From: Planctomycetota bacterium
GTDB lineage: Bacteria > Planctomycetota > UBA8108 > SXIK01
Length of the DNA: 64,000 nucleotides
Assembly (NCBI GenBank): GCA_965223265.1
Contig: OZ244999.1
Location: 6,848,001-6,912,000, forward strand
Direction: 5' to 3'
Positions 18,181-34,634 of this stretch are shown piece after piece. Positions within the stretch are counted from its first letter, which is position 1. Each line of letters opens with the position of its first letter. Made by a program: the position numbers and the translations under genes. Below the pieces are notes generated by a model. That model had not been told where the DNA came from. It worked only from the letters and a program-made list of their open reading frames with translations, and ran no database searches.

Positions 18181-19926
18181 CTACATGCGCTCGGTCAGCG
18201 ACACGCGCAGTAAACGAAGCGCTTGTCGCTGTTCGGGCGACGGCTCGGTGATCACCTCGAACTCAGCCTTGGAGCTCAGCGGGGAAGCGACGCGATTGCG
18301 AGCGATCGTGGCCAAGTCCTGCAGCAGGGTTCGAAAACTATGGGCACACTTGCCGTCGAGAGTGCGCTTGGTCCAGTCCTTCCACTTCGCCATCTCGGAG
18401 CGAACGGCTGGTGTCACCGGCGACTTTCTCCGGTTCACTTCGTCGGCGAACTCATCGTGAAAGAGCATCGGCTTTAGCGCTTGTTGCATGTGCCACTGGA
18501 CGTAGTAGGCGAGCATGCAGAGAAATACGTGAGCTCTCACACGTTTCTCTGCATAGTGAAAAATTGGACGCACTTCGAGATCGACCGTCTTCATACTGCG
18601 AAAAGCCCGCTCCACCTTGCTGAGGCTTTTGTATGCCCTCACGGCTTGCCGGGCACTTAGCTTTCGTTTCGGCACAGTCGTTCGCAGGACGTAGAATCCG
18701 TCCAAGGCGGCTTCACGTTCGATTCGTGGTGCATTGCGCCGGAAACGAAACGTGCTCTCTGCGATCGTCAGGTCAAACAGCTTACCCACCTTGAATCGAC
18801 CTATGACTTTACCGACTCGAATGCCAATCTTCGCCCGGCTCCGAAGTCTTCCTGCTTTGACTGCGGCAGCGACTTTCCAGAGGTGCTTTTCGGTAGCCTG
18901 CAGCAGCTCCTCGCGCTTTCTCCTGCGCTCTTCGGCCAGGAGAGGGTTACGGCAAACGATGAGGCGTTCGTTGGGAAACGAAGGATCATCTATTTCGGCG
19001 AGATTCTGCTGGTCAAAGAACTCAAGCTGAATGCTTCCCGACTCTTTCAGCTTTTGGATCTGGGGCGCTCGCAGCGCTGTGATCCAGTCCACACCGTCAA
19101 TGTCTTTGAGCTCTTCGCGAATTCGCGCCGTGGTGATCATGCCGCGATCTCCCACGAGAGTCATTCGCGACAGTTCGAAATCTTCTCGAAGTCGCTTCAC
19201 CTGGGCTCCGAGAGTCTTGGGGTCTGCAGTGTTCCCCTCAAACACTTCGACAGAAACTGGGCAGCCGTCTTTGTTCGTCAAAACGCCAAATACGATCTGC
19301 GCTTTATGCTTTTTCTCGTCGCGGCTGTGACCCCGTCTTGCCAGCGAACAGCAGCGGCCTTCAAAGTACGTCGAAGTTAAATCGTAGAGCGTTAGCTCAC
19401 CGTCTTTGAGGTGACGCTTGGCCAACTTGACTTGGATCTTTCTCTGACGCTCAACGAGCCAATCCATCGCCTTGTAGAGATCGTTTTCATCTACGTTCTC
19501 CAGCCCCAGTAGCTGCGGAATCGTCGTCGCCTTCCAGGCCCTTGTTGTAGCTAGCTTCGACTGTGGAGAAATAATCCTCGCGGCGATCATCGCCAAGGCG
19601 CACTGGCGCTCACTACTCGCCCGCCCATCAAGGATCGTGTCGAGACCAAGATTGCGCATGGTGCCCAGCACCGCGGCGACGTGACCGTGGCTGCGAGTGG
19701 AGAGAATCTTGAAAGCGTCACTCGCAGAGACGAACTGCTCTCCCTTCAAGGCGCGGCGAACGAGGTCGATCACTTCCAGCGGCAAATGAGAGAGATTGGC
19801 CAGCGTGACGTTACGAACCTTCTTGCCGTCGCGATATGTGCGTCGAAGGAGGTGGCTCTGATAGGTCTTACCCTTGTATTTTCTCTTCGTTGTGACCACA
19901 TGGGCCGATCCACCTCTCTTCGCCAT
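18181..19926 (-). CDS. IS1634-family DDE transposase
   Basis: LLRRTYRDGKKVRNVTLANLS, LYDLTSTYFEG, GHSRDEK, VFEGNTAD, LVGDRGM, YKSLSKVERAFRSMK and RVRAHVFLCMLAY. ATG 19926 preferred; the ORF is open to 19944. Confidence 0.95.
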   Translation of the reverse strand: MAKRGGSAHVVTTKRKYKGKTYQSHLLRRTYRDGKKVRNVTLANLSHLPLEVIDLVRRALKGEQFVSASDAFKILSTRSHGHVAAVLGTMRNLGLDTILDGRASSERQCALAMIAARIISPQSKLATTRAWKATTIPQLLGLENVDENDLYKAMDWLVERQRKIQVKLAKRHLKDGELTLYDLTSTYFEGRCCSLARRGHSRDEKKHKAQIVFGVLTNKDGCPVSVEVFEGNTADPKTLGAQVKRLREDFELSRMTLVGDRGMITTARIREELKDIDGVDWITALRAPQIQKLKESGSIQLEFFDQQNLAEIDDPSFPNERLIVCRNPLLAEERRRKREELLQATEKHLWKVAAAVKAGRLRSRAKIGIRVGKVIGRFKVGKLFDLTIAESTFRFRRNAPRIEREAALDGFYVLRTTVPKRKLSARQAVRAYKSLSKVERAFRSMKTVDLEVRPIFHYAEKRVRAHVFLCMLAYYVQWHMQQALKPMLFHDEFADEVNRRKSPVTPAVRSEMAKWKDWTKRTLDGKCAHSFRTLLQDLATIARNRVASPLSSKAEFEVITEPSPEQRQALRLLRVSLTERM

Positions 19927-19933
19927 GAGCAGC

Positions 19934-19961
19934 ATTATGCGCATCTTGACGTGAAAGGCAA
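19934..19961 (-). promoter_or_regulatory. Possible sigma70-like promoter giving a leaderless transposase mRNA
   Basis: The minus strand reads TTGCCT-N16-CATAAT-N7-ATG(19926), with no Shine-Dalgarno sequence before that ATG. Confidence 0.35.
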
Positions 19962-20109
19962 GGAGGAATCCTCCATTTTAGTGACTACATCTCGGGGCGC
20001 AAAAAACTCTGCAACCTCCTACGTTGTCAATCCTTGCGGCCGAAACCCGCTCAGGCAAGCGTGGAAGTTCGGTTTAGCACACGTAATGGCGCACGGCCTT
20101 GAAGCCGCC

Positions 20110-21630
20110 TCATGGCTCAGCCGACAGGCTCGCCAGTCGAACGTAGACATCGCGCAGTCGCTCCTCCACCTCGCCGTGCACCTCATGCACGCGGTCATAG
20201 GTCGCTGCGGCAGCGCGGTTCGGGGCGACGGTTCGCGCTGTCGGCTGCAGCTTGCTCATGGCAGTCCGCACGTCCGGGAACAGCCCGGCGGCAACGGCTG
20301 CAAGACACGCACTCCCGAGACCGGTGGCCTCGTCGTGCTGTGGCAACGCCAGAGGCACACCAAAGACATCCGCGCGAATCTGCGCCCAGAGCTCACTGCG
20401 CGCACCACCGCCGACGAGCCGCAGCTGTTTCACGTCGACTTTTGCGTCGCGAATGCGCTCGAGTAGCCGGCGCGAGGCAAACGAGCTGCCTTCGAGAATC
20501 GCACGGTAAATGTGAGCCAAACCGTGTTGCGGCGATAAGCCAACCAGCGCGCCGCGTTCTGCTGGCTCCCAGTTCGGAGCGCGGCTACCGACGAGCGTGG
20601 GGAAGAAAAGGAGCTGCTCGGCGCCGGCGTCGAGACGTGCAGCCTCGGCGTCAAGTCGCGCCAGAAGCGCCGCACGCGACGCCCCTGCTGCCTCACTGCC
20701 ACCAAACCGATCGCAGAACCACTCGACACAGCCGCCACTAAGCGACATCGGTCCACCCGCCAGCCAGCACCCGTCCACGGCGTGGGGATTGACGAGAAAA
20801 CCCGCCTGAGGATCGAGCACCGGTGACGACGTGCACGCAAAGACGACGTCGGTCGTGCCAATCACGCTGACCGCGTCACCCGGGGCGACGACCCCGGCGC
20901 CGAGTGCCGCGACCGTCCCATCCGGCCCCCCCACCGCAACGGGAAGTCTCGCCTCGAGTCCAAGGTCGGCCGCGGCGTCGGGAGAGAGACCGCCAGCGAC
21001 CTGGGCTGCCGCGTGTATCGGCGGGAACTTGCTCGATTCGAGACCGAGGACAGAGAAGAACGGCTCGTGCCACACCGACTTGGCGACGTCCGCCAGCAGC
21101 GTGTAGCCTGCGTGCGTGCGGTCCGTCACCATGGCGCCGGTGAGCTGAGCCACAAGATAGTCCTTCAAGCTGAGGAATTTGTCCGTGCGCGCATAGAGGC
21201 TCGTTTCATGGCGCTGCAGCCAGAGTACAAGACAAGCGACGCGTTCGGGATCGATGCGCTTGCCGGTCGCTTCGTAGACGCGCTGCTCCCCGAGCTTCTC
21301 GCGCACGAAGTCGGCTTCGCGGCAGGCGCGCTTGTCGATCCACGTCAGCGCGGGACGGAGAGGACGGCGCTGATTGTCGACGGCGACCAGTCCGAGCTGC
21401 GCGCTGACGCCGATCGCGGCGATGCGAGCTGCGTCGATGCCGCTGAGCGCCTGACGCACAGCATCCTTCATGGCGGCGAGCGCGGCGCGTGGCTCGAGTT
21501 CGGACTGCGCTGCGGCCACCGCGGAGGAGTACGGCGACTCAGCGAGTGCGGAGCACACGCCGTCCGTTGCGATCACGGCCGCTTTGACTGCCCGTGTACC
21601 AGCGTCGATCGCCAGCATCAGGTCGCGCAT
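20110..21630 (-). CDS. FGGY-family carbohydrate kinase (xylulokinase-like)
   Basis: LAIDAGTRAVKA, WIDKRA, LSLKDYL..LTG, GGPDGT, IGTT, RAILEG and LVGGGARSELWAQIRADV. Confidence 0.9.
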   Translation of the reverse strand: MRDLMLAIDAGTRAVKAAVIATDGVCSALAESPYSSAVAAAQSELEPRAALAAMKDAVRQALSGIDAARIAAIGVSAQLGLVAVDNQRRPLRPALTWIDKRACREADFVREKLGEQRVYEATGKRIDPERVACLVLWLQRHETSLYARTDKFLSLKDYLVAQLTGAMVTDRTHAGYTLLADVAKSVWHEPFFSVLGLESSKFPPIHAAAQVAGGLSPDAAADLGLEARLPVAVGGPDGTVAALGAGVVAPGDAVSVIGTTDVVFACTSSPVLDPQAGFLVNPHAVDGCWLAGGPMSLSGGCVEWFCDRFGGSEAAGASRAALLARLDAEAARLDAGAEQLLFFPTLVGSRAPNWEPAERGALVGLSPQHGLAHIYRAILEGSSFASRRLLERIRDAKVDVKQLRLVGGGARSELWAQIRADVFGVPLALPQHDEATGLGSACLAAVAAGLFPDVRTAMSKLQPTARTVAPNRAAAATYDRVHEVHGEVEERLRDVYVRLASLSAEP

Positions 21631-21835
21631 CGCTAGACTCCAGCGTCAATCAGCGTTCACGGAGGGTTCACGCCCGGACTCGTTTCATTCACGTTCCCGG
21701 TTCTTCGGCAGTGCACTCTTCGCAGCAGCGGAGGTAAACCAAGCCGAGGAGCCCTCTGTGGGCCCACCCGCCTTCTCGTCGAGTGCTCCACGCCCACACT
21801 TGGGCGCATTCACGTAGAATTCACCTTTACAGCGG

Positions 21836-22651
21836 CTACCGAACCTTCGCCTCGAGAAGCATCCCGTCTGGATCGATGCTCTCGCGGATGAGAGCTACTT
21901 GCTCCGGTGTCGGCGGGGGCGTCTCCTCGATCTCGTCAGGAATCAAAAGATCAAACCCGGTCTTCTGCTTGACGGTGTCGACGGCAACGCCCGGGTGTAC
22001 GGATTCAAGCCGCATGCGTTTCGACTCTGGGTCGAACCCAAGAACAGCGTACTCCGTGAACACCTTCGCGGGCCCGCCGCCAGGCAGGCCGGCCTTCTCA
22101 CGAGCATCACCACCGTCGAGAAAACCGACGCCCGATATGAAGTCCACCTTCTCGACAAACTGCCGAGGGCTGTGCTCCATCGTGATGAAGGTACGCTTGG
22201 CGAACGCCGCGTGGTCGGTCTGCGCGAGGCATCCTACAAGCCTCACCTTTGGCGACTCGTAGGGACCGATGCAAACGATATTGAGGTTGCCGTACATGTC
22301 GATCTGGGCGCCGGAGATCGCACCGACGTCCATTTTGCCGCACTTGAAAACGTCGAGCGCCTCCTGCTCAGGAATCTGTGCCTTCGAGCGCCAGTGGACC
22401 AGCTCGTAGTCATCACGCAACGAGGACGGGAGCGTCCTCAGATCCGGATCGATCAGCGGACCCAGCATCGGCACGAGGTTCGGCGCATGCGAAAGTTGCG
22501 CCAGCCGACAGGCGACGAGCGGGATTCCGACGGCGAGAATGAAGGCCCGGCCGCCGGTGCCGATACCGATGAAAACGACCTCCTCGTCCCGCAGGTGCGA
22601 AGCGTACGCAACCGCCATGAGTTCTTCGGTGCGATAATCGTCGATCACCAT
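21836..22651 (-). CDS. Family I CoA-transferase beta-subunit-like protein (GctB fold), catalytic Glu absent
   Basis: EELMAVAYA, SGAQIDMYGNLN, PKVRLVG, FVEKVDFISGVG and MRLESVHPGV; has MLGP in place of the ESG motif. Confidence 0.85.
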   Translation of the reverse strand: MVIDDYRTEELMAVAYASHLRDEEVVFIGIGTGGRAFILAVGIPLVACRLAQLSHAPNLVPMLGPLIDPDLRTLPSSLRDDYELVHWRSKAQIPEQEALDVFKCGKMDVGAISGAQIDMYGNLNIVCIGPYESPKVRLVGCLAQTDHAAFAKRTFITMEHSPRQFVEKVDFISGVGFLDGGDAREKAGLPGGGPAKVFTEYAVLGFDPESKRMRLESVHPGVAVDTVKQKTGFDLLIPDEIEETPPPTPEQVALIRESIDPDGMLLEAKVR

Positions 22652-23562
22652 CAGCTGACCTCCTTTGGCCTCTCGAGCCCCAAGAGCCGCTTCACCCCTA
22701 TGCGTTCGAGGTAAGCGAAGTGATCGTCGACGCCGAGCACGTTGTGCTCAAGCCACGACGCGAACTCTTCTGCTGATTTAGTCCGCTCGTGATACTCCCG
22801 GAGAAAGTCGAGGTCGTAGTCGTAGCGGCAGTCGCAAGCTGTTGGGTGGGCGCCGAATGGCGCTTCGACGATGTGGTCGACGAAGAACTTCGGCAAAATC
22901 GTCAAGTGTGGACGTTCACTCACCGCCTCTTCGCTCACAACTTGTTCAACGGAAACGATCACCTTCTTCGCCGACTTAGCGATCAAGGTGTCGACCTCAT
23001 TGTCCAGCTCACGGATCGGATCCAACTGAACGTTGCCGACGAAGTCGGCGGTGTGAGCATGGATCAACGCGAAGTCCGGACGAAAAGCTGGCAAGACGCA
23101 AAATTTCTCGCCGGTGAAGGGGCAGTCCATGCGCCGCACACGATCGTTGTGAGCCTCGATACCTGAACCGAGCGGCGTTTTCGAAGGGTAGAACGTCCAG
23201 CCCATGCTTCCAGCACGGAAGGCGTCAATCGCGGTCGTCTCGGAGTGCTCGTAAATCTTCAGCTCCCCACGCTCAACCGCGCGGCGATAGTGATTCGCCA
23301 GGCCGATCATGGCTAGGCCAATGTAGGAAGTCTCGACCGCTTGGACGCAGCCCGCGCCAATGAGCAGATCCATATCGATGGCGTTGTTCCAGCCAAGAAG
23401 TGTCAGGCCTCGTTTCTTCTGCCTGATCATCTCGTAGATCATCGCCATCGGGTGGCGACGAATGAGCGACCCCCCGATCGCGACCGTCGCACCGTCGGGA
23501 ATCAACTCGACGGCGCGAGCGAGTGTCGTGCGTTTGTCCTTTTTCGCGGTCATGTCCTGCAA
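22651..23562 (-). CDS. Family I CoA-transferase alpha-subunit-like protein (GctA/IpdA fold)
   Basis: IPDGATVAIGG, HPMAMIYEMIRQ, DLLIGAG, CPFTGE, PDFALIHAHTADFVGN and EAPFGAHPT. The start may be ATG 23553. Confidence 0.88.
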   Translation of the reverse strand: MQDMTAKKDKRTTLARAVELIPDGATVAIGGSLIRRHPMAMIYEMIRQKKRGLTLLGWNNAIDMDLLIGAGCVQAVETSYIGLAMIGLANHYRRAVERGELKIYEHSETTAIDAFRAGSMGWTFYPSKTPLGSGIEAHNDRVRRMDCPFTGEKFCVLPAFRPDFALIHAHTADFVGNVQLDPIRELDNEVDTLIAKSAKKVIVSVEQVVSEEAVSERPHLTILPKFFVDHIVEAPFGAHPTACDCRYDYDLDFLREYHERTKSAEEFASWLEHNVLGVDDHFAYLERIGVKRLLGLERPKEVS

Positions 23563-23587
23563 GCCTTACCTGTCTGATCGAACCAAG

Positions 23588-23655
23588 GTGGCAGGCACAG
23601 TCTGTGTGCCGCCCGCTTTTGCTATTGGCTACGGCACACAGAGTGTGCCTGCTAC
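23588..23655. repeat. REPIN: inverted pair of GTAG-family REPs inside the operon
   Basis: gtggcaggcacagtctgtgtgccg-N20-cggcacacagagtgtgcctgctac; the arms are near-perfect reverse complements. Confidence 0.85.
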
Positions 23656-23662
23656 TCTCCGC

Positions 23663-24469
23663 TCAGTCGATCTTGGCGCTCAGAAGGAGGCCCTCCGGGT
23701 CGACTCGCCCGCGCAGCACTTCGAGTTCCGAGGCCATCGGCGCCGTGAGCGTCGCTACGCCATCGACCCCCAGCGGCTCAAAACTCATCAGTTGACGCAA
23801 CTCGCTCGGATCGAAGCCGGGAAGGCAGTTCTTCGCACGCATGCGTTTCGTCTCGTCATCAAACTCGAACACCGCGCCGTTCGTCACGACGCGCCAGGGA
23901 CCCTGAGGCGGCAACCCCACACGCTCGCGCGCGCCAGGACCAGAAAGGTACCCGGCGCCTGAAATGAAGTCGACTTGTTCGACGAACGTTCGCGGCGAAA
24001 GATCATTGACGATACAGTTCCGTGCCGGCGAAGCCAAGTGGTCGGTCTGCGCGATCGGGCCGACGAGTCGTACTTTCGGACGGCGTTCGGTGCCGATGGC
24101 GACGACGTTGAGATTGCCGTAGACGTCGACCTGCGAACCAGAGACGAAGCTGACGGTTATCTTGCCGAGCTTGAAGCAGTCGAGACACTCTTCGACAGGG
24201 ATCTGCGCTTCGCACGGCCACGAGATCAGCTCCGAGTCCGTGTAGGATCGGGGCTGCGACGCGGGGTCAGGATTGACGATCGGGCCAAGCATGAGCGTGA
24301 GTCCCGGGGCGTGTGTCAGCCGGGCCAACTGACAGGCGGCGGTCGGAATGCCGACCGCCAGGACGAACGCTCGCCCACCTGTACCGATGCCAACGAACGC
24401 CACATCGGTCGAGCGCAACTCCCGAGCGATCGCGATCGTCATCAGCTCTTCGATCGTCGCGGGCGTCAC
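23663..24469 (-). CDS. Family I CoA-transferase beta-subunit-like protein, catalytic Glu absent
   Basis: EELMTIAIARE, SGSQVDVYGNLN, PKVRLVG and FVEQVDFISGAG; has MLGP in place of ESG. GTG 24469 has a GGAGG RBS and lies 1 nt after the alpha-subunit stop. Confidence 0.85.
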   Translation of the reverse strand: MTPATIEELMTIAIARELRSTDVAFVGIGTGGRAFVLAVGIPTAACQLARLTHAPGLTLMLGPIVNPDPASQPRSYTDSELISWPCEAQIPVEECLDCFKLGKITVSFVSGSQVDVYGNLNVVAIGTERRPKVRLVGPIAQTDHLASPARNCIVNDLSPRTFVEQVDFISGAGYLSGPGARERVGLPPQGPWRVVTNGAVFEFDDETKRMRAKNCLPGFDPSELRQLMSFEPLGVDGVATLTAPMASELEVLRGRVDPEGLLLSAKID

Positions 24470-24470
24470 G

Positions 24471-25358
24471 TCAGCTCCTCCCACCCTTGGCCGGATCGTT
24501 TCGCGCACCGATCTTCTCGAGGTAGTCGGCATGACTCCCAGGACGCCGGACATACTCGTCCACGAATGCGTCGAATGTAGCGGCGTTCTTCGAGGCAGCA
24601 TAATAGAGCGCGGTGAAATCGAGATCGTAGTCGTAACGCAGATCGCAAGAACACGGGTGGGCGCCCTGCGGCGCCTCGACCACTGCGTCGACGAAAAACC
24701 CGGGCAGAATTGTCGCCTGTGGTCTCTTCATGACGGTCTCCGTCGACACGATTTCCTCGACGCTGACGATCACGCGTTTGGCACTTCGGGCAATGAAGAC
24801 ATCAGCAAAATTGTCCATGAGCACACGCTCGTCGATCTGAACGTTACCCTTCGCATCAGCAGTGTGCGCGTGCAAGAGCGCGACGTCTGGCTCTGCGGCA
24901 CGCAACGCTGCCATGCGTTTGCCAGTGAACGGACACACGATCTCGCGCGTTTCCGCCTCGAAGTTCATCAGGCCGCTACCGAGCGGGCCGTTCGAAGGGA
25001 TGAACGAGATGCCCATGGCCCCGGCACGAAATCGCTCAAGTGCGGTGTTCTCCGAGTCCTCGACGATGTCGATCGAACCGGCTTCTGCGGCGCGCCGATA
25101 GTTGAGCGCTAGACCGAAGCGCCCCATACCAACGTACGACGTCTGCACAGAGCGGACGCAGCCGGCGCCGACCAGAAGGTCGAAGTCGATGCCGTTGTTC
25201 CAGCCGCTCAGTCGTAGATCGCGTCGGCCTTGGCGCACGAGCTCGTACACCATCGCCATCGGATGGCGACGCTGGGAGTGGCCGCCGAGCGCCAACTGCG
25301 CTCCATCGCCGATCGTACCGACGGCCTCCTCAAGCGACGTGATCTTCTTTGCTTCCAT
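24471..25358 (-). CDS. Family I CoA-transferase alpha-subunit-like protein
   Basis: IGDGAQLALGG, HPMAMVYELVRQG, DLLVGAG, CPFTGK, PDVALLHAHTADAKGN and EAPQGAHPCS. Confidence 0.88.
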   Translation of the reverse strand: MEAKKITSLEEAVGTIGDGAQLALGGHSQRRHPMAMVYELVRQGRRDLRLSGWNNGIDFDLLVGAGCVRSVQTSYVGMGRFGLALNYRRAAEAGSIDIVEDSENTALERFRAGAMGISFIPSNGPLGSGLMNFEAETREIVCPFTGKRMAALRAAEPDVALLHAHTADAKGNVQIDERVLMDNFADVFIARSAKRVIVSVEEIVSTETVMKRPQATILPGFFVDAVVEAPQGAHPCSCDLRYDYDLDFTALYYAASKNAATFDAFVDEYVRRPGSHADYLEKIGARNDPAKGGRS

Positions 25359-25457
25359 GACCTAACACTGTTTTTCGCAAACCTTGCGGCTGTGCGCCCG
25401 CGCTGGCGGCCAGCGCTCAGCACATCCCGTCAACAAAGGCTCCGTCGAAGTGCCCTA

Positions 25458-25505
25458 TCAAAAAGGCTCAAAAAGGCCCCATCAAAAAGGCCCCATCAAA
25501 AAGGC
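25458..25505. repeat. Four short direct repeats of TCAAAAAGGC, reiterating the ThDP gene stop region
   Basis: tcaaaaaggc at 25458, 25468, 25482 and 25496. Confidence 0.7.
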
Positions 25506-27184
25506 TCCGTCCAGACGTTCTCATCAGGGTCGATGAGAACGTCGAGCAAGTACGTGCCGTTATGGGCAAGCGCCCTTTCGACCGCTGGCTGCAAGTCCCC
25601 GGGAGCTTCGACGCGCTCACCGTCGGCCCCGAAACCGCGCGCCACCTGTGCGAATTGGATGTCCGTAAAATCGACGCCGATGTAGCGCGGCCCGAAGTAC
25701 GTCAGCTGCTCCTGCTTGATGTTGCCGTAAGCCATGTTGTTCATGACGATGATGAGAACGGGCGCCTTCTCGCGCACTGAAGTCTCGATCTCGCTGACGC
25801 ACATCCCAAGGGAACCGTCACCGATGATGCAGGCGACGGGATGTTCTGGACGTGCGAGTTTGGCCGCAATTGCAGCTGGCAAGGCGAACCCCATGTTGCC
25901 GAAGCCAACCGGCTTGATGTAAGTCCCTGGCTCGAAAATCGGCAGCAAGTGAGTCCAAATCCCAGGGTTGCCCGCGCCGGCTGCGATGATCGTCTGGCGC
26001 GGTAGAGCCGCGCGCAGCGCCTGCATGAAAAACTGCGGCTTGATCGGCTGAGCGGTCGCGTACTCTCGCTTGAAGATCTTCTTCTCCCACTCCGCTTGCG
26101 CCGCCTCGAGCTCTTTGACGCGCTGGCGGCGCACCTCGAGGCCCGCAGCTGCCGGTGCGCAGCCCGCGAGGGCCGCGAGGAGCTGCGTGGTGACGACGGT
26201 GGCGTCGCCGACAACGCCGACTTCAACGGGATAGTGCCGACCGATGTTGGCAGCGTCCACATCGACCTGTACGAGGCGACGCGGGAGCTGCAGCTTCCAG
26301 CGTCCGGTCGACGGCGCATTGAGGCTGTTACCGATCGCCAGCACGACGTCGGCCTCCTCGAGCACGCGGCCGGTGACCTCGGTACCGTGGCGACTGCGCG
26401 GTCCGAAGACCAAGCGGTGGTCCGCCGGGACCACCCCAACGCCGTTGTACGTCGTCACTAGAGGCGCTTCCAACAGCTCGGCGAGTTGGACCAGCTCGGC
26501 GGTGCCGCGCGCCACGAGCGCGCCCCGCCCCGCCCAGATCGCCGGCCGCTGCGCGTCAGAGAGCAGCTCGGCGGCAGCTGCGATCGCCGCGGCATCGCCT
26601 GCGGGTCGCGCTTCCGTGCGGTAAACAAGCGGTGTCGACGGAACGTAGTCTACAGTGGCATCCTCGAGAACGTCGCGCGAGAAGTCGAGGTGTACCGGTC
26701 CTGGGTTCCCCGTCACAGCACGGCGGAACGCCTCGTGGACGGCATCCGGAATCCGTTCGGCAATGGTGACCAGACAGGACCACTTCGTGAACTGTCCGAG
26801 CAGCTTGCAGTGATCTGCCTCCTGCGCGTCGTCACGCTGAAAATCACGCGCACGATTGTTGGCCGTGAGCACGAGCATTGGGCTCGAATCGCGCTGCGCC
26901 CCGCCGATTCCCGTGACCAGGTTCGTGACACCTGGCCCAGTGGTCGCGAGGCAGACGCCAGGGCGACCTGTCAAACGTCCGTAGGCGTCAGCCATGCACG
27001 CCGCACCGCGCTCGTCGCGTGTCGTGATGAAGCGGATCTCGCTGGCGTCAAACAGCGCGTCCATAATGGCGAGATTCTGACCACCCGGAACGCCGAAGAC
27101 AAACTCAACGCCTTCTCGACGCAAACAATCGACGACGGCCGCACCGCCGCGACCTTGAACTCGATCTGGAAGAGATTCTCCCAT
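25496..27184 (-). CDS. Thiamine-diphosphate-dependent enzyme (acetolactate synthase-like superfamily)
   Basis: GVEFVFGVPG, catalytic Glu in TRDERGA, TTGPGVTN, GPVHLD and the ThDP motif GDGSLGM..VMNN. ATG 27184 preferred. Confidence 0.92.
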   Translation of the reverse strand: MGESLPDRVQGRGGAAVVDCLRREGVEFVFGVPGGQNLAIMDALFDASEIRFITTRDERGAACMADAYGRLTGRPGVCLATTGPGVTNLVTGIGGAQRDSSPMLVLTANNRARDFQRDDAQEADHCKLLGQFTKWSCLVTIAERIPDAVHEAFRRAVTGNPGPVHLDFSRDVLEDATVDYVPSTPLVYRTEARPAGDAAAIAAAAELLSDAQRPAIWAGRGALVARGTAELVQLAELLEAPLVTTYNGVGVVPADHRLVFGPRSRHGTEVTGRVLEEADVVLAIGNSLNAPSTGRWKLQLPRRLVQVDVDAANIGRHYPVEVGVVGDATVVTTQLLAALAGCAPAAAGLEVRRQRVKELEAAQAEWEKKIFKREYATAQPIKPQFFMQALRAALPRQTIIAAGAGNPGIWTHLLPIFEPGTYIKPVGFGNMGFALPAAIAAKLARPEHPVACIIGDGSLGMCVSEIETSVREKAPVLIIVMNNMAYGNIKQEQLTYFGPRYIGVDFTDIQFAQVARGFGADGERVEAPGDLQPAVERALAHNGTYLLDVLIDPDENVWTEPF

Positions 27185-27206
27185 GCTTCTGCCAAACACC
27201 TCCGCG

Positions 27207-27992
27207 TTAGTCCCTCGGCAAGTAGACACCGGACGGGTCGATCACCTCGCGCAGAAGTCGAACGTCTTCTGCACTCGGACCGACTGTCGTCGGTGCCTCG
27301 TCTGGCAGGAGTAAATCGAATCCCGTGTTCTCTTTCACCTCGTCGAGACTGACTCCGGGATGCAGCGATTCGAGCCGCATGCGCTTCGTCGCGTCGTCGA
27401 ACCCCAAGATGGCGAGGTTGGTGATCACGCGCACAGGTCCCGCGCCGCGCAGTCCGTTCGCCTCACGCTCACCAGCCCCGCCGAGGTGACCGGGAGTCGT
27501 GACGTATCCGACGCGGCTGGGAAACTTGCGCCGCTCGTGCGGCACGATCACGACGACGCGTTTAGCGAGCGACGCGATGTCGTTGGCGCCGCCACTTCCC
27601 GGTAGGCGCACCTTCGGCCGGCGGTAGTCGCCAATCGCCGTCGAGTTGATGTTGCCGTACTGGTCGATTTCTGCCGCTCCCAGAAACCCCAAGTCCACGA
27701 AACCCCCTTGGAGAAGACTCAGCGCGTAGTAGAGCCCTGAAGTCTTGGTGCAATCTGTCATCAGACAAAAGTCGCCGACGCCGGTCGCCAACGACTCCGG
27801 CTGCGCATCGATGATCCCCGACTCGAAGAACATGGTGACGCCGGGGGCGTGCGTATACTTGGCGAGGTAGGCGGCAATCATCGGCAGACCGGTACCGATG
27901 ATGGCGACTTCGCTGTCACGGATCTCGCGCGCCGCGGCGACCGCCATCAATTCTTCGCGACTACACTCCTGAATCTGTTGCTGACTGCTCAT
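27207..27992 (-). CDS. Family I CoA-transferase beta subunit (glutaconate CoA-transferase B-like), catalytic Glu present
   Basis: IIGTGLP, FFESGIID (catalytic Glu), FLGAAEIDQYGNINST and RLPGSGGANDIAS. ATG 27992 preferred. Confidence 0.9.
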   Translation of the reverse strand: MSSQQQIQECSREELMAVAAAREIRDSEVAIIGTGLPMIAAYLAKYTHAPGVTMFFESGIIDAQPESLATGVGDFCLMTDCTKTSGLYYALSLLQGGFVDLGFLGAAEIDQYGNINSTAIGDYRRPKVRLPGSGGANDIASLAKRVVVIVPHERRKFPSRVGYVTTPGHLGGAGEREANGLRGAGPVRVITNLAILGFDDATKRMRLESLHPGVSLDEVKENTGFDLLLPDEAPTTVGPSAEDVRLLREVIDPSGVYLPRD

Positions 27993-28178
27993 GACTCGAC
28001 TTAAGCTCGAAGCTTCTCTAACGGACCTCTTGAAGACAACCGCGCCAGCGTCGAATAGCGGCATCGAACACAGCGTCGAACGGCGACGCGACTCGAGCCG
28101 AGGACTTCAGTGCAGCGCGTCTGAGCGTGAGGTCTCGAATGGTGGCTGTATCGCATCTTGATCCGAAGCACTGAGCCG

Positions 28179-29084
28179 CTAGTATCCGAGATACGGATCT
28201 GCACGCAGAGACGTCAGCCGTCGCAGGCCAATCTTGTCGAGGTAGCTCCAGTGGTCCTCGACGTTGTAAACGAACTCGTCAAGGTACTCCTGAAACGACT
28301 CCTCCTGTCTGGACGCATCCCAATAGTGTTGGATGTGCTCGCTATCATAGTTGTAGTAACGAAACATGCCGGCGGGATGGGCGCCGAAAGGCAACTCGAC
28401 AACGGCGTCAACCACGAATGACGGCAGGATGGTCGCTTCGGGGCGCCGCGCGATCTGGCGTCGGTCGACGACCTCTTCCACAGAGACAACCACCTTGCGC
28501 GCTGCGCGCGCCTGCTCGTCGATAATCGAAGTCATACCGAAAATCTGCGTGTTTCCTTCGCGATCGGCCCGGGCCGCGTGAATGAACGCAACGTCCGGCT
28601 GCACGGCACGCACTGAAACGTACGACTCACCCGTGAACGGGCACTGCGACATCCTATGCTTGTCGGCGTCGAAGCTCGTCACTTTCAGAATGTCGGTCCC
28701 CGCCATGACTTTCGTCGGCATCGACGACAGTCCCAAGGATCCCGCCATGAATCGCGATGTGATCCCGAAGTGACTGTAGTCCTCGACTTCCAATTGACCG
28801 CTCTCGACAGCGCGTGAAAAGTTTCGACAACGACCGAAACCTTCGAACATATAGTTCGACAGACGGGTCCGCCGCAGACGTCCGGCGCCGCTGAGAAGAT
28901 CGGCCGCCCAGCATTCGCCCATCGAGCTCAATTCGAGATCCTTCGCGCCTTGGCGAATGATCTCGCGGACAAGTGCGATCGGCGCGAGAGAATGCGCGAA
29001 GCCGCTGAACGTCAGATGACTACCATCCTTGACGACGGCCGCAGCCTCAGTGAGTGAAATCAGCTTGTCAGGAGCGGCGGTCAT
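28179..29084 (-). CDS. Family I CoA-transferase alpha subunit (glutaconate CoA-transferase A-like)
   Basis: VKDGSHLTFSGF, EVEDYSH, CPFTGE, PDVAFIHAARADREGN and PFGAHP. Confidence 0.9.
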   Translation of the reverse strand: MTAAPDKLISLTEAAAVVKDGSHLTFSGFAHSLAPIALVREIIRQGAKDLELSSMGECWAADLLSGAGRLRRTRLSNYMFEGFGRCRNFSRAVESGQLEVEDYSHFGITSRFMAGSLGLSSMPTKVMAGTDILKVTSFDADKHRMSQCPFTGESYVSVRAVQPDVAFIHAARADREGNTQIFGMTSIIDEQARAARKVVVSVEEVVDRRQIARRPEATILPSFVVDAVVELPFGAHPAGMFRYYNYDSEHIQHYWDASRQEESFQEYLDEFVYNVEDHWSYLDKIGLRRLTSLRADPYLGY

Positions 29085-29308
29085 AGAACGCGCGGTTGTT
29101 CCTCAACAGTGGTTGTAGTTGAGCGCAGTTGAACCGAATATAGTAGCTTGTCCGGGGCACGCGAGGTAAGTAAAATCTCGCTTCGAGAATGCGGTCGAGA
29201 TGGGCGGCTGCCGGCAGATTTCTTCGCCGTAGGGGCGGCCGGTTTTTCGTCGCTCATACTCCGCTACAGTCCGCAAGACGAATCGATCAACCTGACTGAG
29301 GAGAGGCA

Positions 29309-30343
29309 ATGCCATTCCGAATGATCTGTATCGCGGTGCCCTTTTTCGCCTTTGGCTGCACCGATGGCGGTGGCGACAACGCGAGCGAGACATTCACCGT
29401 GCGCATGGCGACGCTCTTCGGGAAGGAACATCACTTGGCGCAAAAGCTCGAGTGGATGAAGACTGAACTCGAGAAACGAAGCGGTGGACGTTTTCAGTGC
29501 AAGGTCTTTCCTGGGGGTACGGTCGGCGGCGAGAAGGAGAATCTCGAAGACCTTCTCAGCGGCAACCTCGAAGTGATGAATGGCGCCGGAAGCTACTTCT
29601 ACCACTTCGTTCCTGAGGCGAGCGTTCTGGAGTTACCTCACTACCGTTGGCAGAGCAAAAAGCAGGCATGGGAAACTATCCGTGCCTATTGGCCGAAGTT
29701 TGCAGAGGTGTCGGAGAAGAAAGGCTACACCCCCATCGGACTCGATATCCGGGACTACTGGGGCGTCTTTTACAAAACCCCCGTCGACTCCCTAGCCGCC
29801 GTGAAGAACGCCAAGTTCCGCTCCGTCAACGCCGACCTGTGGATCAAGCTGACGGAGGTCTACGGCGCGGTCCCCAACCCGATTCCCTACGCCGACGCAT
29901 ACATGGCGTTCAAGACCGGTGTTGCGGAGGGCTCGCTCGGCTCGGTGACGGGCGCCGTCGCTGCGAATTGGCACGAAGTCCTGAAGTGCTTCTTCGACAC
30001 CCGGCTCGTCTTGAGCGAAAGTCTTATGCTGGCGTCGACCAGCTGGCTCAAGGGGCTGCCGGAAGATCTACGGACTTTGTTTCTCGAGGTGTCGCGCGAG
30101 AGTGAAGAGTTTAACTTCAAAGCGGTCGAGAAGCAGTACGCCGCCAACAAGCAGGAGATGCTCGACGCCGGTGTCAAATGGATCAAGCGTGAAGACATCG
30201 ACATGAGCGAACTCGACGCGAAAGTACCGGCCTGGCGTGACGAGTACATGCAGGCGAAAGGCCCGGAAGTCTTTGCGTTCTACAAGGACTGGCTGTCGCA
30301 CGTGGAAGAATACGCAGCCAAGTTCAATGCTGAGAACGGCTAA
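29309..30343 (+). CDS. dctP: TRAP transporter substrate-binding protein (lipoprotein)
   Basis: Lipobox FAFGC, ELEKRSGGRF..VFPGGTVGGE, KFRSV and YGAVPNPIPYADAYMAFKTGV. Confidence 0.9.
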   Translation: MPFRMICIAVPFFAFGCTDGGGDNASETFTVRMATLFGKEHHLAQKLEWMKTELEKRSGGRFQCKVFPGGTVGGEKENLEDLLSGNLEVMNGAGSYFYHFVPEASVLELPHYRWQSKKQAWETIRAYWPKFAEVSEKKGYTPIGLDIRDYWGVFYKTPVDSLAAVKNAKFRSVNADLWIKLTEVYGAVPNPIPYADAYMAFKTGVAEGSLGSVTGAVAANWHEVLKCFFDTRLVLSESLMLASTSWLKGLPEDLRTLFLEVSRESEEFNFKAVEKQYAANKQEMLDAGVKWIKREDIDMSELDAKVPAWRDEYMQAKGPEVFAFYKDWLSHVEEYAAKFNAENG

Positions 30344-30400
30344 TCACGTCGACCGGGTGGCTCCGAGGATCCACGCAGTAGCCGACGAACAGGGATCACG

Positions 30401-30976
30401 TTGACGCCCAGCGCCGCGCACCTCAACACCTACACGAAGGTCACGCGGCGGCTCGTCGAAAGCGTGGCGGTGCTGCTGTTCGTCACCGTCTTGTGCCTAC
30501 AGGCGGTCAACATCTTCCTGCGCTATGTCCCCGCACTGTCGCCGTGGATGTGGGTGGAGGATTTGACCAAGTACGCGCTCATATGGAGCTTCTTTCTCCT
30601 CTGGCACCTCGCTGATCGCAGCGGTAGTCACTTCTCGGTCGATGTGCTGACATCGAGGCTGCCGCCGAAAGGGCGGAAGTTTCTCGACTGCGTCGGACAT
30701 GCCATTGCGATCTTCTTCGCCGCAGCCGTGATCTACAGCGCCGTTCGATTCATTCCCACCGGCATGCAGTACCCGACGAACTCGTTTTCGTGGATCCCGA
30801 TGGGAGTGATCTACTTCGTGATTCCGGTGGGGCTCAGCCTCGTCCTCATCGAACGCGTGCTGCTTCTCGTAGCTCGCCTGAGGCGGACAGCTGACGAAAG
30901 CGCGGCGCCGCCTGGTCTCGACGTGGAGAGTTCAACTGACGAGTTAAGCGACTCCTCAGGAGGCGTTCCAACGTAA
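30401..30976 (+). CDS. dctQ: TRAP transporter small permease
   Basis: Four TM segments, NIFLRY, WVEDLTKYALIW and HFSVDVL; lies between dctP and dctM. Confidence 0.88.
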   Translation: MTPSAAHLNTYTKVTRRLVESVAVLLFVTVLCLQAVNIFLRYVPALSPWMWVEDLTKYALIWSFFLLWHLADRSGSHFSVDVLTSRLPPKGRKFLDCVGHAIAIFFAAAVIYSAVRFIPTGMQYPTNSFSWIPMGVIYFVIPVGLSLVLIERVLLLVARLRRTADESAAPPGLDVESSTDELSDSSGGVPT

Positions 30977-30984
30977 CTGCAGCC

Positions 30985-32280
30985 ATGCTGACTGTCGCGA
31001 TTCTCTTCGGCCTTATGCTCTTTCTGGTCCTCCTCGGCGTGCCGCTGGTTTACAGCATCGGCGCCGCGGCAGCGGTCGTCATCTTCGCTCAAGACGACAT
31101 GAACGTGACACTCCTCGCGGCGAGGATGTTCAAGGGCGTCGACAACTTTGTCCTCGCATCGATTCCCTTCTTTCTCCTCGCCGCAGAGCTGCTCACCAGT
31201 GGCGGACTCGTGCACCGCATCGTTCGCTTCGCGCAGCTGCTCATCGGCCACGTGCGCGGCGGGCTGGCGCAGGCAAACATCTTAGTGAGCATGGTCTTCG
31301 CAGGAATTCAGGCCTCGTGCACTGCGGACAGCGCCGCAATCGGCGGTGTCTTGATTCCTGCCATGACCAAAGAGAAGTACGACAAAGACATCAGCGTCGT
31401 CGTCACCGCGACGTCTTCGTGTTGCGGCCCGATCATCCCGCCGAGCATCCTGATGATCCTCTACGCCTTTCTCACCGAGACTTCCGTGGCGAAGCTCTTT
31501 CTCGGCGGCGCGATCCCGGGACTCCTGCTCGGCTTCGCCCTCATGGCGATCACGCACTTCTGGGTCGTACGGCGCGGCTACAAAAAGAGCCGTGAGCGGA
31601 TGGCTCCAGCACGCGAGATCGGTTCCGCCGCTGTGTCGTCGTCGCCGGCGTTCCTCGTGCCTCTGATCATTCTGGTCGGTCTTGTCGGCGGGATCGTCAC
31701 ACCGACGGAGGCTGGAGTTCTTTCTTGCGTCGCCGCACTCGTCGTCGCCGGTCTCTTCTACCGCGAGCTGACGCCTTCGCGCTGCGTCGGCGCCGTCAAA
31801 CGCGCGGCACACACGACCGCGCTCATCTGGGCCGTGATCGCCGTATCGACGGTCTTCTCAGAAATTCTCGTGCGCAATCTGTTTGCAGACGCGCTCATCG
31901 AGACGATCGCCGTGATCACTACAAGTCCGACCGGCGTGCTATTGATCATTGCGCTCGTCGTGTTTCTGCTCGGCATGGTGATCGACACGACACCGCTCCT
32001 CATCATGCTCGCCAGCCCGCTCTACATCGCCGGCAAGCAGGTCGGCATTGACCCAGTCCAGCTCGGCGTCGTCCTCGTCATGACCGCGCTCATCGGCACG
32101 GTCAGTCCACCGGTGTCGATCCTGCTGTGCCTCAACTGCAGCATCGCGCGCATCCCGCTCAGCGCCACGTTCCGCGTCATCTGGTCCTACCTGGCGGTGA
32201 TGCTGGCCGTCGTTGCGCTGTGCATCCTGTTTCCGCAGTTGGTGACCTGGTTGCCGGGGGTGTTTGACTCAGCACGCTGA
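30985..32280 (+). CDS. dctM: TRAP transporter large permease
   Basis: LASIPFFLLAAEL, RGGLAQANI, GPIIPPSILMI, LFLGGAIPG, TPTEAG and GIDPVQLG. Confidence 0.95.
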   Translation: MLTVAILFGLMLFLVLLGVPLVYSIGAAAAVVIFAQDDMNVTLLAARMFKGVDNFVLASIPFFLLAAELLTSGGLVHRIVRFAQLLIGHVRGGLAQANILVSMVFAGIQASCTADSAAIGGVLIPAMTKEKYDKDISVVVTATSSCCGPIIPPSILMILYAFLTETSVAKLFLGGAIPGLLLGFALMAITHFWVVRRGYKKSRERMAPAREIGSAAVSSSPAFLVPLIILVGLVGGIVTPTEAGVLSCVAALVVAGLFYRELTPSRCVGAVKRAAHTTALIWAVIAVSTVFSEILVRNLFADALIETIAVITTSPTGVLLIIALVVFLLGMVIDTTPLLIMLASPLYIAGKQVGIDPVQLGVVLVMTALIGTVSPPVSILLCLNCSIARIPLSATFRVIWSYLAVMLAVVALCILFPQLVTWLPGVFDSAR

Positions 32281-32378
32281 GCCCCAGCCTCCGTCTCTGA
32301 CTCTGGCACCATTGTTGGCCCTGTGCGCTTCTGACTCGGAATCGGTTCTGGCTCGGTCTCTGTTTCTCAGTCCCTATA

Positions 32379-32484
32379 TACGGATACAGAGACGGAATCA
32401 GATATACAGATACAGATACAGATACGGGATACGGACACAGAGGCAGAAACAGATACGGATACAGAGGCGGAGTCAGAAGCAGAG
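32379..32484. repeat. Hexamer-periodic tract (GATACA/GATACG/GAGGCA)n
   Basis: tacggatacagagacggaatcagatatacagatacagatacagatacgggatacggacacagaggcagaaacagatacggatacagaggcggagtcagaagcagag. Confidence 0.75.
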
Positions 32485-32504
32485 TACTCGTACGCCCACG
32501 CCCA

Positions 32505-32986
32505 CGCACTCGCACTCGCACTCGCTTGCGAGACCGGACGGCACACGGAGTGTGCCTGCTACTTTAGCAACGCACTCGCACTCGCACTCGCACTCGCTTG
32601 CGAGACCGGACGGCACACGGAGTGTGCCTGCTACTTTAGCAACGCACTCGCACTCGCTTGCGAGACCGGACGGCACACGGAGTGTGCCTGCTACTTTAGC
32701 AACGCACTCGCACTCGCACTCGCACTCGCACTCGCACTCGCACTCGCTTGCGAGACCGGACGGCACACGGAGTGTGCCTGCTACTTTAGCAACGCACTCG
32801 CACTCGCACTCGCTTGCGAGACCGGACGGCACACGGAGTGTGCCTGCTACTTTAGCAACGCACTCGCACTCGCTTGCGAGACCGGACGGCACACGGAGTG
32901 TGCCTGCTACTTTAGCAACGCACTCGCACTCGCTTGCGAGACCGGACGGCACACGGGGAGTGTGCCTGCTACTTTAGCAACGCACT
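32505..32986. repeat. Tandem array of seven 48-bp REP-containing units separated by (CGCACT)n
   Basis: Unit cgcttgcgagaccggacggcacacggagtgtgcctgctactttagcaa starts at 32523, 32595, 32655, 32745, 32811, 32871 and 32931 (the last has +GG). Hexamer counts are 3|4,2,7,3,2,2|1. Confidence 0.95.
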
Positions 32987-33102: not shown

Positions 33103-34563
33103 TCAGGCGACCACCTCCTCAAGCACCTCACCGCCAATATCGGTCAGGCGTCGGAAGCGTCCCGCGTGCAGGTAGGTGAGCTTCTTGTCGTCGAGTCCGA
33201 GTAGGTGCAAGAGCGTGGCGTGAACGTCGCGCACGTGGATAAAACGGCCGACCGAGCGGACACCGAACTCGTCCGTCTGACCAACCGTCGTGCCGCCCTT
33301 GACGCGTCCGCCGGCCATCCACATCGTCAGCGCGTACGAGTTGTGCTCGCGGCCTGGTCGTTTGCCGAGCTCGCCGTTTTTGAACGGCGTCCGCCCCATT
33401 TCCGAAGCCCAGACGACCAGCGTCTTCTCGAACAGTCCACGTTGTTTCAGATCCTCAAGGAGCGCGCCGATCGGTTGATCGACCTCTGCGCAGTGGCGCG
33501 GCAAGCCGGCGGCGATATTGCCATGGTCGTCCCAGCTGTGGCGGCCAATCTGCACGCCGTGGACAAGCATGGTGAAACGCACGCCCTTTTCGACCAGGCG
33601 ACGCGCCAACAGACACTGGCGGCCAAAGCCGGCTGTATGCTCCTGATCGAGACCGTAGAGATTCCTGACATCCTGCGATTCACGCGAAATGTCGACCAAC
33701 TCCGGTGCCTCTGCCTGCATGCGGAATGCCAGCTCATAGGCGTGAATCCGCGCTTCCAGTTCCGTCGCACCCGAACGATCGGCCAGGTGCTTTTCGTTAA
33801 GGAACTTGAGCGCATCGAACTCGCGCCTTTGTTGCTCGCGTGTGATCCCTTCAGGTCGCTTGAGGTTGAGAATCGGGGTACCTACGGGACGCAGAAGCGT
33901 GCCTTGATACGCCGCCGGCAAGTAGCCATTACCCCAAACCGCCGCGCCGTTGACGGGTGCGCCACGCGGATCTTGGACCACAACATACCCAGGCATGTCC
34001 TGGTTCGGGCTGCCGAGACCATAGCTCACCCACGACCCCACGGACGCGCCGCCGGGGAACTGGTCTCCCGTCGTCACGTGCAGCGTCGACGGCCCGTGAT
34101 TCTGGTTGTCGGTCTTGATGCCATGGACGAACGCCAAATCATCAACGTGGCGTGCAATGTGTGGCACGAGCGACGACATGTAGCGACCGCACTTGCCATG
34201 GCGCGAGAACTCAAACGGACTGGCAAGGCAGCGGTGATCGAAAGCGAGCCGGCTCTCGAGCTCTCCCTTGACGTTCGGAACGCGCGGCAGCGGCTTGTTG
34301 TGCACTTTCGCGAGCGCCGGCTTGTACTCGAACGTATCCATGTGGCTGACGCCGCCGCCCATGAACATAAAGATGCAGTGTTCTGCGTGACCGAGAAGAT
34401 CCGGCTCGCGCAGTCTGAGCGGATTGGTCTCGCCACTCTCCGCTCCGAGCTCATCGGCGAGCATGCCCGCAAGGGCGAGCGCACCAAGGCCGTTCAGATT
34501 CCGGCAGAGGAAGTCCCTGCGCGTGGTGGTGGGTGCCGGTTCGCGATCGAATCGATTCTCCAT
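33103..34563 (-). CDS. DUF1501 family protein (Tat-exported, sulfatase-like)
   Basis: TRRDFL Tat motif, IFMFMGGGVSHMDTF, FGRQCLLARRLVEKGVRF, WDDH and SEMGRTP. Confidence 0.92.
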   Translation of the reverse strand: MENRFDREPAPTTTRRDFLCRNLNGLGALALAGMLADELGAESGETNPLRLREPDLLGHAEHCIFMFMGGGVSHMDTFEYKPALAKVHNKPLPRVPNVKGELESRLAFDHRCLASPFEFSRHGKCGRYMSSLVPHIARHVDDLAFVHGIKTDNQNHGPSTLHVTTGDQFPGGASVGSWVSYGLGSPNQDMPGYVVVQDPRGAPVNGAAVWGNGYLPAAYQGTLLRPVGTPILNLKRPEGITREQQRREFDALKFLNEKHLADRSGATELEARIHAYELAFRMQAEAPELVDISRESQDVRNLYGLDQEHTAGFGRQCLLARRLVEKGVRFTMLVHGVQIGRHSWDDHGNIAAGLPRHCAEVDQPIGALLEDLKQRGLFEKTLVVWASEMGRTPFKNGELGKRPGREHNSYALTMWMAGGRVKGGTTVGQTDEFGVRSVGRFIHVRDVHATLLHLLGLDDKKLTYLHAGRFRRLTDIGGEVLEEVVA

Positions 34564-34634
34564 GGCTCTTCTTCAAGTTGGCGTCTGCGGCGAATTCCCG
34601 CGAGAATCCGCGAAAACAAAGTGTCGCCTCAGTT

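Follow-up and report, generated by a model that had tools for sequence, protein, structure and literature searches.

Two CoA-transferase-fold heterodimers with a swapped glutamate in a planctomycete operon: candidate non-transferase enzymes

A single minus-strand operon in a 64,000-nucleotide stretch of a Planctomycetota genome (assembly GCA_965223265.1, contig OZ244999.1, positions 6,848,001–6,912,000; hereafter the window) encodes three α/β pairs of coenzyme A (CoA)-transferase-fold subunits, in the gene order αC, βC, thiamine diphosphate (ThDP)-dependent enzyme, α2, β2, α1, β1 and FGGY-family kinase. One pair (αC/βC) is canonical. In the other two (α2/β2 and α1/β1, referred to as variant pairs), the β subunit has lost the catalytic Glu of class I CoA-transferases and the α subunit has gained one. 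We lean towards the view that the variant pairs are heterodimers which do not transfer CoA and which use the α Glu for acid-base chemistry on an acyl-CoA made by a neighboring enzyme, with C-C bond cleavage as the likeliest reaction. The first-pass annotation of this DNA, which had proposed non-transferase enzymes on the CoA-transferase fold, appears to have been right in kind; the chemistry discussed below is a proposal drawn from alignments, models and gene context.

The glutamate swap and its conservation

All six CoA_trans (PF01144) subunits listed in the first-pass annotation were found at the locus. The variant genes lie at 21836–22651 (β1; 271 aa), 22651–23553 (α1; 300 aa from an ATG at 23553, within an open reading frame (ORF) extending to a TTG at 23562), 23663–24469 (β2; 268 aa from a GTG at 24469) and 24471–25358 (α2; 295 aa), and the canonical ones at 27207–28064 (βC; start at 27992 or 28064) and 28179–29084 (αC), all on the minus strand. 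PF01144 is present on all four variant subunits, which have the class I CoA-transferase fold and the two-subunit α/β architecture. The two variant pairs are related to each other (53% identity for α2 and α1, ~50% for β2 and β1), and β2 scores 378 bits against the variant β profile.

A competent class I CoA-transferase has a β Glu (ESG/ENG) and a GxGG(A/F)xD loop, the latter being the CoA/oxyanion loop of the β subunit. βC contains both (ESG and GSGGAND), whereas β1 and β2 contain neither. The absence of the Glu from β1 and β2, already noted at the first pass, is due to a one-residue deletion at the Glu column, and the replacement of the RLPGSGGAND-type loop was likewise seen again, with G[CP][LI]AQTDH in place of GSGGAND. 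The two subunits also share an insertion after the first strand, previously put at about 10 residues; the insertion is real, but it comprises 11 residues of the pattern GxGTGGRAFxxA (residues 30–40 of β1). AQTDH is common to both, and in β1 the residues of this AQxDH motif are Gln144, Asp146 and His147. In class I transferases, according to the available text of one report, β Glu-to-Ser/Ala mutants are dead and a Glu-to-Asp mutant is a hydrolase (PMC12400318).

These features are shared by the best 120 database relatives of β1 (49–84% identity): in all 120 the insertion is present, the catalytic Glu is absent (a gap in 118, Ala in two) and the GSGGAND/GxGG loop is replaced. Since the best relatives share the insertion and the loss of Glu without exception, the swap is not a chance event. 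Within AQxDH, the His is found in 115 and the Gln in 110 of the 120. The sources of these proteins include an Alkalihalobacillus species, Anaerolineaceae, Gaiellaceae and Methylomirabilis, and span several phyla; where named, the proteins are labeled “glutaconate CoA-transferase subunit B” or “CoA-transferase”. Mean column identity over 36 diverse β subunits is 58%. Several residues separate variant from canonical β subunits (frequencies of 1.0 and 0.0 for His147, 0.93 and 0.0 for Gln144, 1.0 and 0.07 for Ser113, and 1.0 and 0.0 for Thr32, respectively). Others, namely Asp118, Asn124 and Gly140 of β together with Glu203 and Tyr244 of α, are conserved in variant and canonical subunits alike, which would fit retained binding of a CoA ester.

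The α subunits show the reverse change. The Glu of α1 and α2 and the His of αC, as annotated, occupy the same column in a MAFFT alignment (S-E-[TN] versus S-H). Each α was then matched to the β encoded just downstream. The column is Glu in 18/18 α subunits paired with insertion-type β subunits and in 0/77 of those paired with Glu-bearing ones, where it is Asn, His or Ser, and once Leu. The loss of the β Glu and the gain of the α Glu therefore covary without exception in 95 pairs (18 + 77), and the four α subunits paired with other Glu-less, insertion-free β subunits also have the Glu (4/4). It is residue 103 of α2 (counted from the translation) and residue 105 of α1 if, as is probable, translation starts at ATG 23553 (residue 108 in the TTG-started ORF). 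A further α residue, Asp188, located in a small α insertion, is found at a frequency of 1.0 in variant and 0.0 in canonical subunits.

A tree was built from the β subunits of the fetched loci and the window, without the window duplicates (L047, L059, L060) and an odd ORF (L058). Among its 149 sequences, those without the Glu (35) fall together in a single clade with a support of 0.996, opposite the 114 Glu-bearing ones (0.907, midpoint root). Nested within the Glu-less group, the β subunits with the insertion (28) are a clade of their own (0.916). Both window pairs have the three features that define this clade, i.e. the 11-residue Gly-rich insertion, AQx[DE]H and the S-E of the α subunit. Together with the 120 relatives, the tree bears out the earlier suggestion of a distinct subfamily, which is conserved and belongs to the branch of glutaconate CoA-transferases.

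Two other groups of Glu-less β subunits were observed in the tree. A sister clade (L067, L072, L075, L076, L079, L084, L101, L074 and L073) has a LATGxxT-like insertion and, in most members, an xNQPGHF-type or xLQPEHF-type loop (L067, L073 and L074 differ). Its five paired members (L067, L072, L073, L079, L084) all have the α Glu, its neighbors include molybdopterin oxidoreductases (L067, L072) and a ThDP enzyme (L101), and its function is probably different. Six further sequences (L077, L081, L087, L126, L137 and L138) have no insertion and hold Gly, Ser, Leu or a gap in place of the Glu; they are basal branches of the Glu-less clade, and the pairable α subunits of this group (L081, L087, L126, L138) all carry the swapped Glu.

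The distribution of the variant was examined in samples of genomes by scoring at most 6–8 candidates per genome, so that a count of zero stands for “not found” and not for “absent”. The variant was not found in 400 other genomes of the sample of the window's phylum, two of its own family included. Another 11 matches in this sample scored below βC of the window; 10 of them are Glu-bearing and without the insertion, and one is an odd ORF with the Glu. Nor was the variant found in 350 other genomes of the phylum sample of a Bryobacterales genome, and it was detected in 1/301 genomes of a phylum sample drawn around a Chloroflexota genome. A single-protein scan of genome contigs returned mostly canonical pairs (Glu-bearing β in 41/46 loci). 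In a search for fused forms, eight longer proteins (521–597 aa, 36–41% identity) were found to carry PF01144 alone, and these are read as putative α-β fusions.

Comparison with characterized enzymes and the predicted heterodimer

Judging by sequence comparison, the variant family is closest to GctAB, not to IpdAB or AibAB. GctAB of Acidaminococcus fermentans (1POI) is the nearest solved relative of both variant subunits (GctB versus β1: 5e-34, 31% identity; GctA versus the variant α profile: 5.7e-71), and its two-subunit architecture and gene order are alike. GctB differs, however, in having the catalytic Glu54β (available text of PMC5380842), which variant β subunits lack, and it is gapped across most of the Gly-rich insertion, while GctA has Gln where variant α subunits have Glu. 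The variant β subunits also lack the GxGG-type loop found in βC of the window.

IpdAB (6CO6, 6CO9, 6COJ, 6CON) resembles the variant pairs in a different way. Its β Glu is absent (Gly57β), as in variant β subunits, and no CoA transfer by this enzyme was seen, both according to the available text of PMC5380842; PMC6678751 describes it as a retro-Claisen ring hydrolase. The substrate of IpdAB is COCHEA-CoA, a CoA ester supplied by other enzymes. The manual alignment of the first pass had placed the α Glu at the IpdA position. This placement was upheld when a profile of 18 variant α subunits was aligned to PDB chains. The invariant Glu corresponds to residue 117 of chain 6co6_A (IpdA of R. jostii), which is Glu; the same column holds Ala in the otherwise matching 6coj_A, Glu in the Mycobacterium tuberculosis chain 6con_A, Gln in GctA and Gly in AibA. 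It is thus the residue by which 6co6_A and 6coj_A differ (E/A). We take 6COJ to be the E105A variant of IpdA, and Glu105 to be the catalytic base proposed by Crowe et al. in 2018. Nevertheless, judged by search scores and identity, the variant pairs are not orthologs of IpdAB: IpdB matches β1 at 1e-16 (25–26% identity) and lacks the insertion as well as the His and Gln of AQxDH. The genetic contexts also differ, being steroid catabolism (KstR2; echA20, ipdC, fadA6) for IpdAB and a ThDP enzyme, kinase, canonical transferase and TRAP (tripartite ATP-independent periplasmic) transporter for the variant pairs.

The third relative, AibAB of Myxococcus xanthus (5MZW and following), is a non-transferase 3-methylglutaconyl-CoA decarboxylase on the same fold. 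AibA ranks high among the PDB chains matching α1 (1.7e-39) and has Gly at the swapped α position. Of the three solved relatives, AibB matches β1 least well (7e-10); it lacks the insertion and AQxDH, belongs to a different pathway context and has Cys56 in place of the β Glu (available text of PMC7756340), whereas variant β subunits have a deletion at that column. No characterized member of the Glu-less insertion-type family was found in the literature searched on IpdAB/GctAB/AibAB-type enzymes.

The AlphaFold2 model of β1 (pLDDT 90.1, pTM 0.90) is closest to GctB (1poi_B; TM 0.81–0.84), followed by AibB and IpdB. The insertion is modeled as a Gly-rich loop after the strand 25–28 and lengthens the following helix (34–54); residues 135–140, which precede AQTDH, are the sole segment with pLDDT <50. 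The α1/β1 complex was predicted with CoA included and scored for the two subunits. Its median ipSAE over three runs was 0.94, whereas the highest of three controls had 0.00; the mark applied is reached by 58/80 solved complexes and 2/110 mismatched pairs. The runs agreed in at least 98% of contacts, with a partner pLDDT of at least 92. In the predicted heterodimer, residues 104–105 of α contact residues 141–146 of β (the AQxDH loop), and residues 31–34 of the insertion are part of the interface. The model thus gives a predicted contact site for the new residues, which is no proof of a catalytic role.

Gene neighborhoods and the proposed reaction

Gene context was compared in 18 loci with a β subunit of the same clade, termed type A (the window, L001–L005, L061–L066, L068–L071, L078 and L141). 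A genuine CoA-transferase is encoded near the variant pair in 12 of them, a class I enzyme with the Glu in nine and a class III enzyme in L066, L070 and L141. A ThDP enzyme is also nearby in 12/18 loci (acetolactate synthase (ALS)-like in 10, an acetoin-dehydrogenase-like E1α/E1β plus E2 in L061, and in L063 a transketolase that is split), and a kinase in eight (FGGY in seven, DhaK in L071). The transporters are of the TRAP type (window, L064, L068, L071), the lactate-permease family (L001, L005) or the sugar ATP-binding cassette (ABC) type (L061, L063, L141). Other neighbors are an aldehyde dehydrogenase directly after β in L062, an MR_MLE dehydratase in L141, and IolB/KduI, a xylose-isomerase-like barrel and an acyl-CoA dehydrogenase in L063. 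Locus L064 contains the entire module of the window at ~50% identity, i.e. a LacI regulator, the ThDP enzyme, α, β, FGGY kinase, αC, βC and divergent TRAP genes. The adjoining bona fide CoA-transferases fit a role of the variant pairs on a thioester supplied by a different enzyme, in line with the CoA-activated substrate assumed in the first-pass annotation.

In L061 (4356–19527), a metagenome locus, the canonical pair, variant pair and FGGY kinase are surrounded by genes for the acetoin-dehydrogenase-like E1α, E1β and E2 (instead of the ALS-like ThDP enzyme), two URO-D-family proteins, a sugar ABC transporter, and lipoate ligase and synthase. A CoA-dependent catabolism of inositol giving 3-oxopropionyl-CoA was considered and dropped, as only L063 has IolB/KduI-like genes; such a route would also be unlike the Anaerostipes pathway, in which IolC and IolJ act first and an ordinary transferase afterwards.

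From these observations we infer a loss of transferase activity, an acid-base role of the α Glu, the type of reaction and the class of substrate. The αC/βC enzyme (a class III enzyme in some relatives) would load an imported hydroxy-carboxylate onto CoA, and the variant pair would bind the resulting acyl-CoA at the α/β interface. There, the α Glu (Glu105 of α1, Glu103 of α2), probably with the invariant β His of AQxDH, would serve as a general acid-base, the chemistry proceeding via a thioester enolate. The likeliest reaction is C-C cleavage, either by retro-aldol cleavage of a 3-hydroxyacyl-CoA or, by analogy with IpdAB, through retro-Claisen hydrolysis of a 3-oxoacyl-CoA; epimerization, isomerization or dehydration would be less likely. 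A short hydroxy-aldehyde or ketol so released could pass to the adjacent ThDP enzyme and then be phosphorylated by the FGGY kinase, and in this scheme the minimal operon, which encodes no oxidoreductase, would be redox-neutral. The hydroxy-acid and sugar transporters, ThDP enzymes, triose/ketose-type kinases and the one aldehyde dehydrogenase fit the release of such a product. Candidate substrates, picked on purely chemical grounds, are 2-deoxy-aldonates, 3,4-dihydroxybutyrate, C4 aldonates and glycolate.

A precedent for CoA thioesters of sugar acids is the deoxyribonate route of Klebsiella michiganensis, proposed from fitness data by Price et al. in 2019, in which, according to the available text of PMC6365646, deoxyribonyl-CoA and glyceryl-CoA occur and sugar-acid CoA thioesters are converted to acetyl-CoA and a C3 unit, followed by a kinase. 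That route relies on three enzymes (CoA synthetase, hydroxyacyl-CoA dehydrogenase and thiolase), without a ThDP enzyme or FGGY kinase, and the same part of PMC6365646 mentions no Glu-less CoA-transferase-fold pair.

We favor non-transferase enzymes because the β Glu is indispensable, because a true transferase is encoded alongside, and because the only characterized α-Glu enzyme is a C-C hydrolase. Several points nevertheless weigh against this proposal. In 6/18 loci no CoA-transferase is encoded nearby; five of these (L062, L068, L069, L071, L078) are short or cut, but L002 extends over 20.8 kb. The ThDP enzyme and the kinase score below all curated family cut-offs, and the minimal operon leaves the need for both a ThDP enzyme and a variant pair unexplained. 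Since IpdB is without the insertion and the His, the mechanism need not match that of IpdAB. The high score of the α1/β1 model may be a memory of GctAB-type complexes, as these have been solved. Finally, the α Glu could in principle be a relocated nucleophile.

This last possibility, in which the variant pairs would still be CoA-transferases, the carboxylate having moved from β to α so that the α Glu forms the acyl-anhydride and glutamyl-CoA intermediates, is the most serious of the alternatives, though we regard it as rather unlikely. The fold and many shared residues are kept, the Glu lies at the predicted interface beside the former GxGG loop, operons with two CoA-transferases do occur, and L002 encodes two variant pairs with no canonical transferase within its 20.8 kb. 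On the other hand, the GSGGAND loop of transferases has been replaced throughout the best 120 relatives, and IpdAB, the one characterized α-Glu enzyme, showed no CoA transfer according to the available text of PMC5380842. Moreover, a genuine class I or III transferase accompanies the variant pair in two thirds of the loci (12/18), and a class III enzyme stands in where class I is missing (L066, L070, L141), as if the variant were unable to do so.

Simple acyl-CoA thioesterases, in which the displaced carboxylate would activate water as in Glu-to-Asp mutants of class I enzymes, appear improbable. The CtfAB E46D mutant is an acyl-CoA hydrolase, and the same conversion is cited for GctAB (available text of PMC12400318; title of PDB 9cq2). 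However, next to a CoA-transferase such an enzyme would squander the thioester bond preserved by the transferase. The Gly-rich insertion and the additional invariant residues (His and Gln) suggest more elaborate chemistry, and a thioesterase would not account for the close association with ThDP enzyme and kinase genes.

A shade less probable still are AibAB-like decarboxylases acting on a dicarboxylyl-CoA. DctP-family TRAP transporters often take dicarboxylates, which counts in favor of this idea, as does the high rank of AibA among the PDB matches of α1; AibAB is, moreover, an established decarboxylase on the same fold whose β Glu has become Cys (available text of PMC7756340). Against it stand the Gly of AibA at the swapped position, the absence of the insertion and of AQxDH from AibB, which is also further from β1 than GctB or IpdB, and the lactate-permease-family and sugar ABC transporters and sugar kinases, which point to hydroxy-monocarboxylates or sugars. 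That the variant subunits are non-catalytic, either as decayed duplicates or as scaffolding subunits of the canonical transferase, is very improbable: the canonical catalytic motifs are indeed lost, but the subunits are highly conserved, have acquired new invariant residues, are encoded by intact frames with translational coupling, and form a monophyletic clade found in several phyla.

The operon of the window, its second pair and its origin

The four variant genes are closely packed. At the α1/β1 junction the stop and start codons overlap as TGATG, preceded by AAGGAGG. The start of β2 is most likely GTG 24469 and not ATG 24601, since the GTG follows the Shine-Dalgarno sequence GGGAGGAG and abuts the α2 stop (1 nt past it); the gene would thus be shorter than the ORF that extends to 24601. 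Translational coupling is visible at the operon gene junctions, and the reading frames are intact. The spacer between β2 and α1 (23554–23662, minus strand; 109 nt), whose sequence was read directly, contains two short GC-rich palindromes of similar sequence that could be hairpins or a regulator site.

Between the variant and canonical pairs lies the gene of the ALS-like ThDP enzyme (25496–27229, minus strand; likely start at ATG 27184), with three TPP_enzyme domains. Its top NCBIfam match (408 bits against a cut-off of 538) and all others fall under the NCBIfam cut-offs; the top PDB matches are BbmA (8x3x; 1e-82) and ALS I of Escherichia coli (5e-80). The last gene of the operon (20110–21630, minus strand) encodes a xylulokinase-like FGGY-family sugar kinase with FGGY_N and FGGY_C domains, which matches XylB at 317 bits against a cut-off of 380 and the PDB xylulose kinase 2itm at 2e-57. 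Upstream of αC, the TRAP transporter genes are divergently oriented (29309–32280, plus strand), comprising DctP (29309–30343), DctQ (30401–30976) and DctM (30985–32280); a comparison of DctP with liganded structures gave no close match (best 1.9e-22). A 237-aa ORF without a Pfam match (32264–32977), which overlaps the end of DctM, may not be a gene.

The first-pass annotation had the two variant pairs acting in sequence on a CoA-activated substrate, and this is not supported. Among five close loci from Bryobacterales/Acidobacteriia, four have only the α1/β1 type and one (L002) has both types, in the order seen in the window; more distant loci have one variant pair each. In addition, the divergence of β1 from β2 (~50% identity) equals the distance of β1 from homologs in other phyla. 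The second pair looks like an accessory paralog and not an obligatory sequential step. Given the single-pair loci and the low β1/β2 identity, the two pairs are most likely paralogs for related substrates or stereoisomers rather than for consecutive steps.

The operon together with the TRAP genes (18181–32280, including the adjoining transposase) was likely acquired horizontally. This is suggested by the likeness of the operon proteins to those of Bryobacterales metagenome-assembled genomes (62–79% identity), by the contrast with HflX of the window (44% identity to one such Bryobacterales genome versus 59–70% to its own family and order), by the lack of detected variants in the 400 phylum genomes, and by a DDE transposase gene of an insertion sequence element (18181–19944, minus strand; PF01609) that adjoins the kinase end of the operon. 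The GC content drops locally to 0.555 at the transposase. Genes of the DUF1501 and PSCyt2/PSD1 (DUF1549/DUF1553) families were observed downstream of the TRAP genes (33103–36905); this combination is typical of Planctomycetota-like and some Acidobacteriota genomes.

The database label “glutaconate CoA-transferase subunit A/B” is very probably wrong for the insertion-type Glu-less clade, whose members probably perform different chemistry on CoA-bound hydroxy acids. The loss of the β Glu combined with the gain of the α Glu offers an easy way to tell non-transferases from transferases in this family by sequence, and the active-site design of the IpdAB type extends far beyond steroid catabolism. 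In soil and sediment bacteria, the conserved combination of a CoA-transferase with a variant pair, a ThDP enzyme and a sugar kinase suggests a CoA-dependent route, previously undescribed, for the use of hydroxy acids or sugar acids. As a more tentative proposal, which we hold to be possible but doubtful, the family may represent a fold rebuilt around an α-Glu/β-His dyad and a Gly-rich loop, which would cleave C-C bonds of polyhydroxyacyl-CoA in a new redox-neutral route. If this is true, the variant pair would form, with the CoA-transferase, the ThDP enzyme and a triose/tetrulose-type kinase, a new CoA-dependent catabolism of small sugar-derived hydroxy acids, and IpdAB would be only one specialized offshoot of a much wider α-Glu design.

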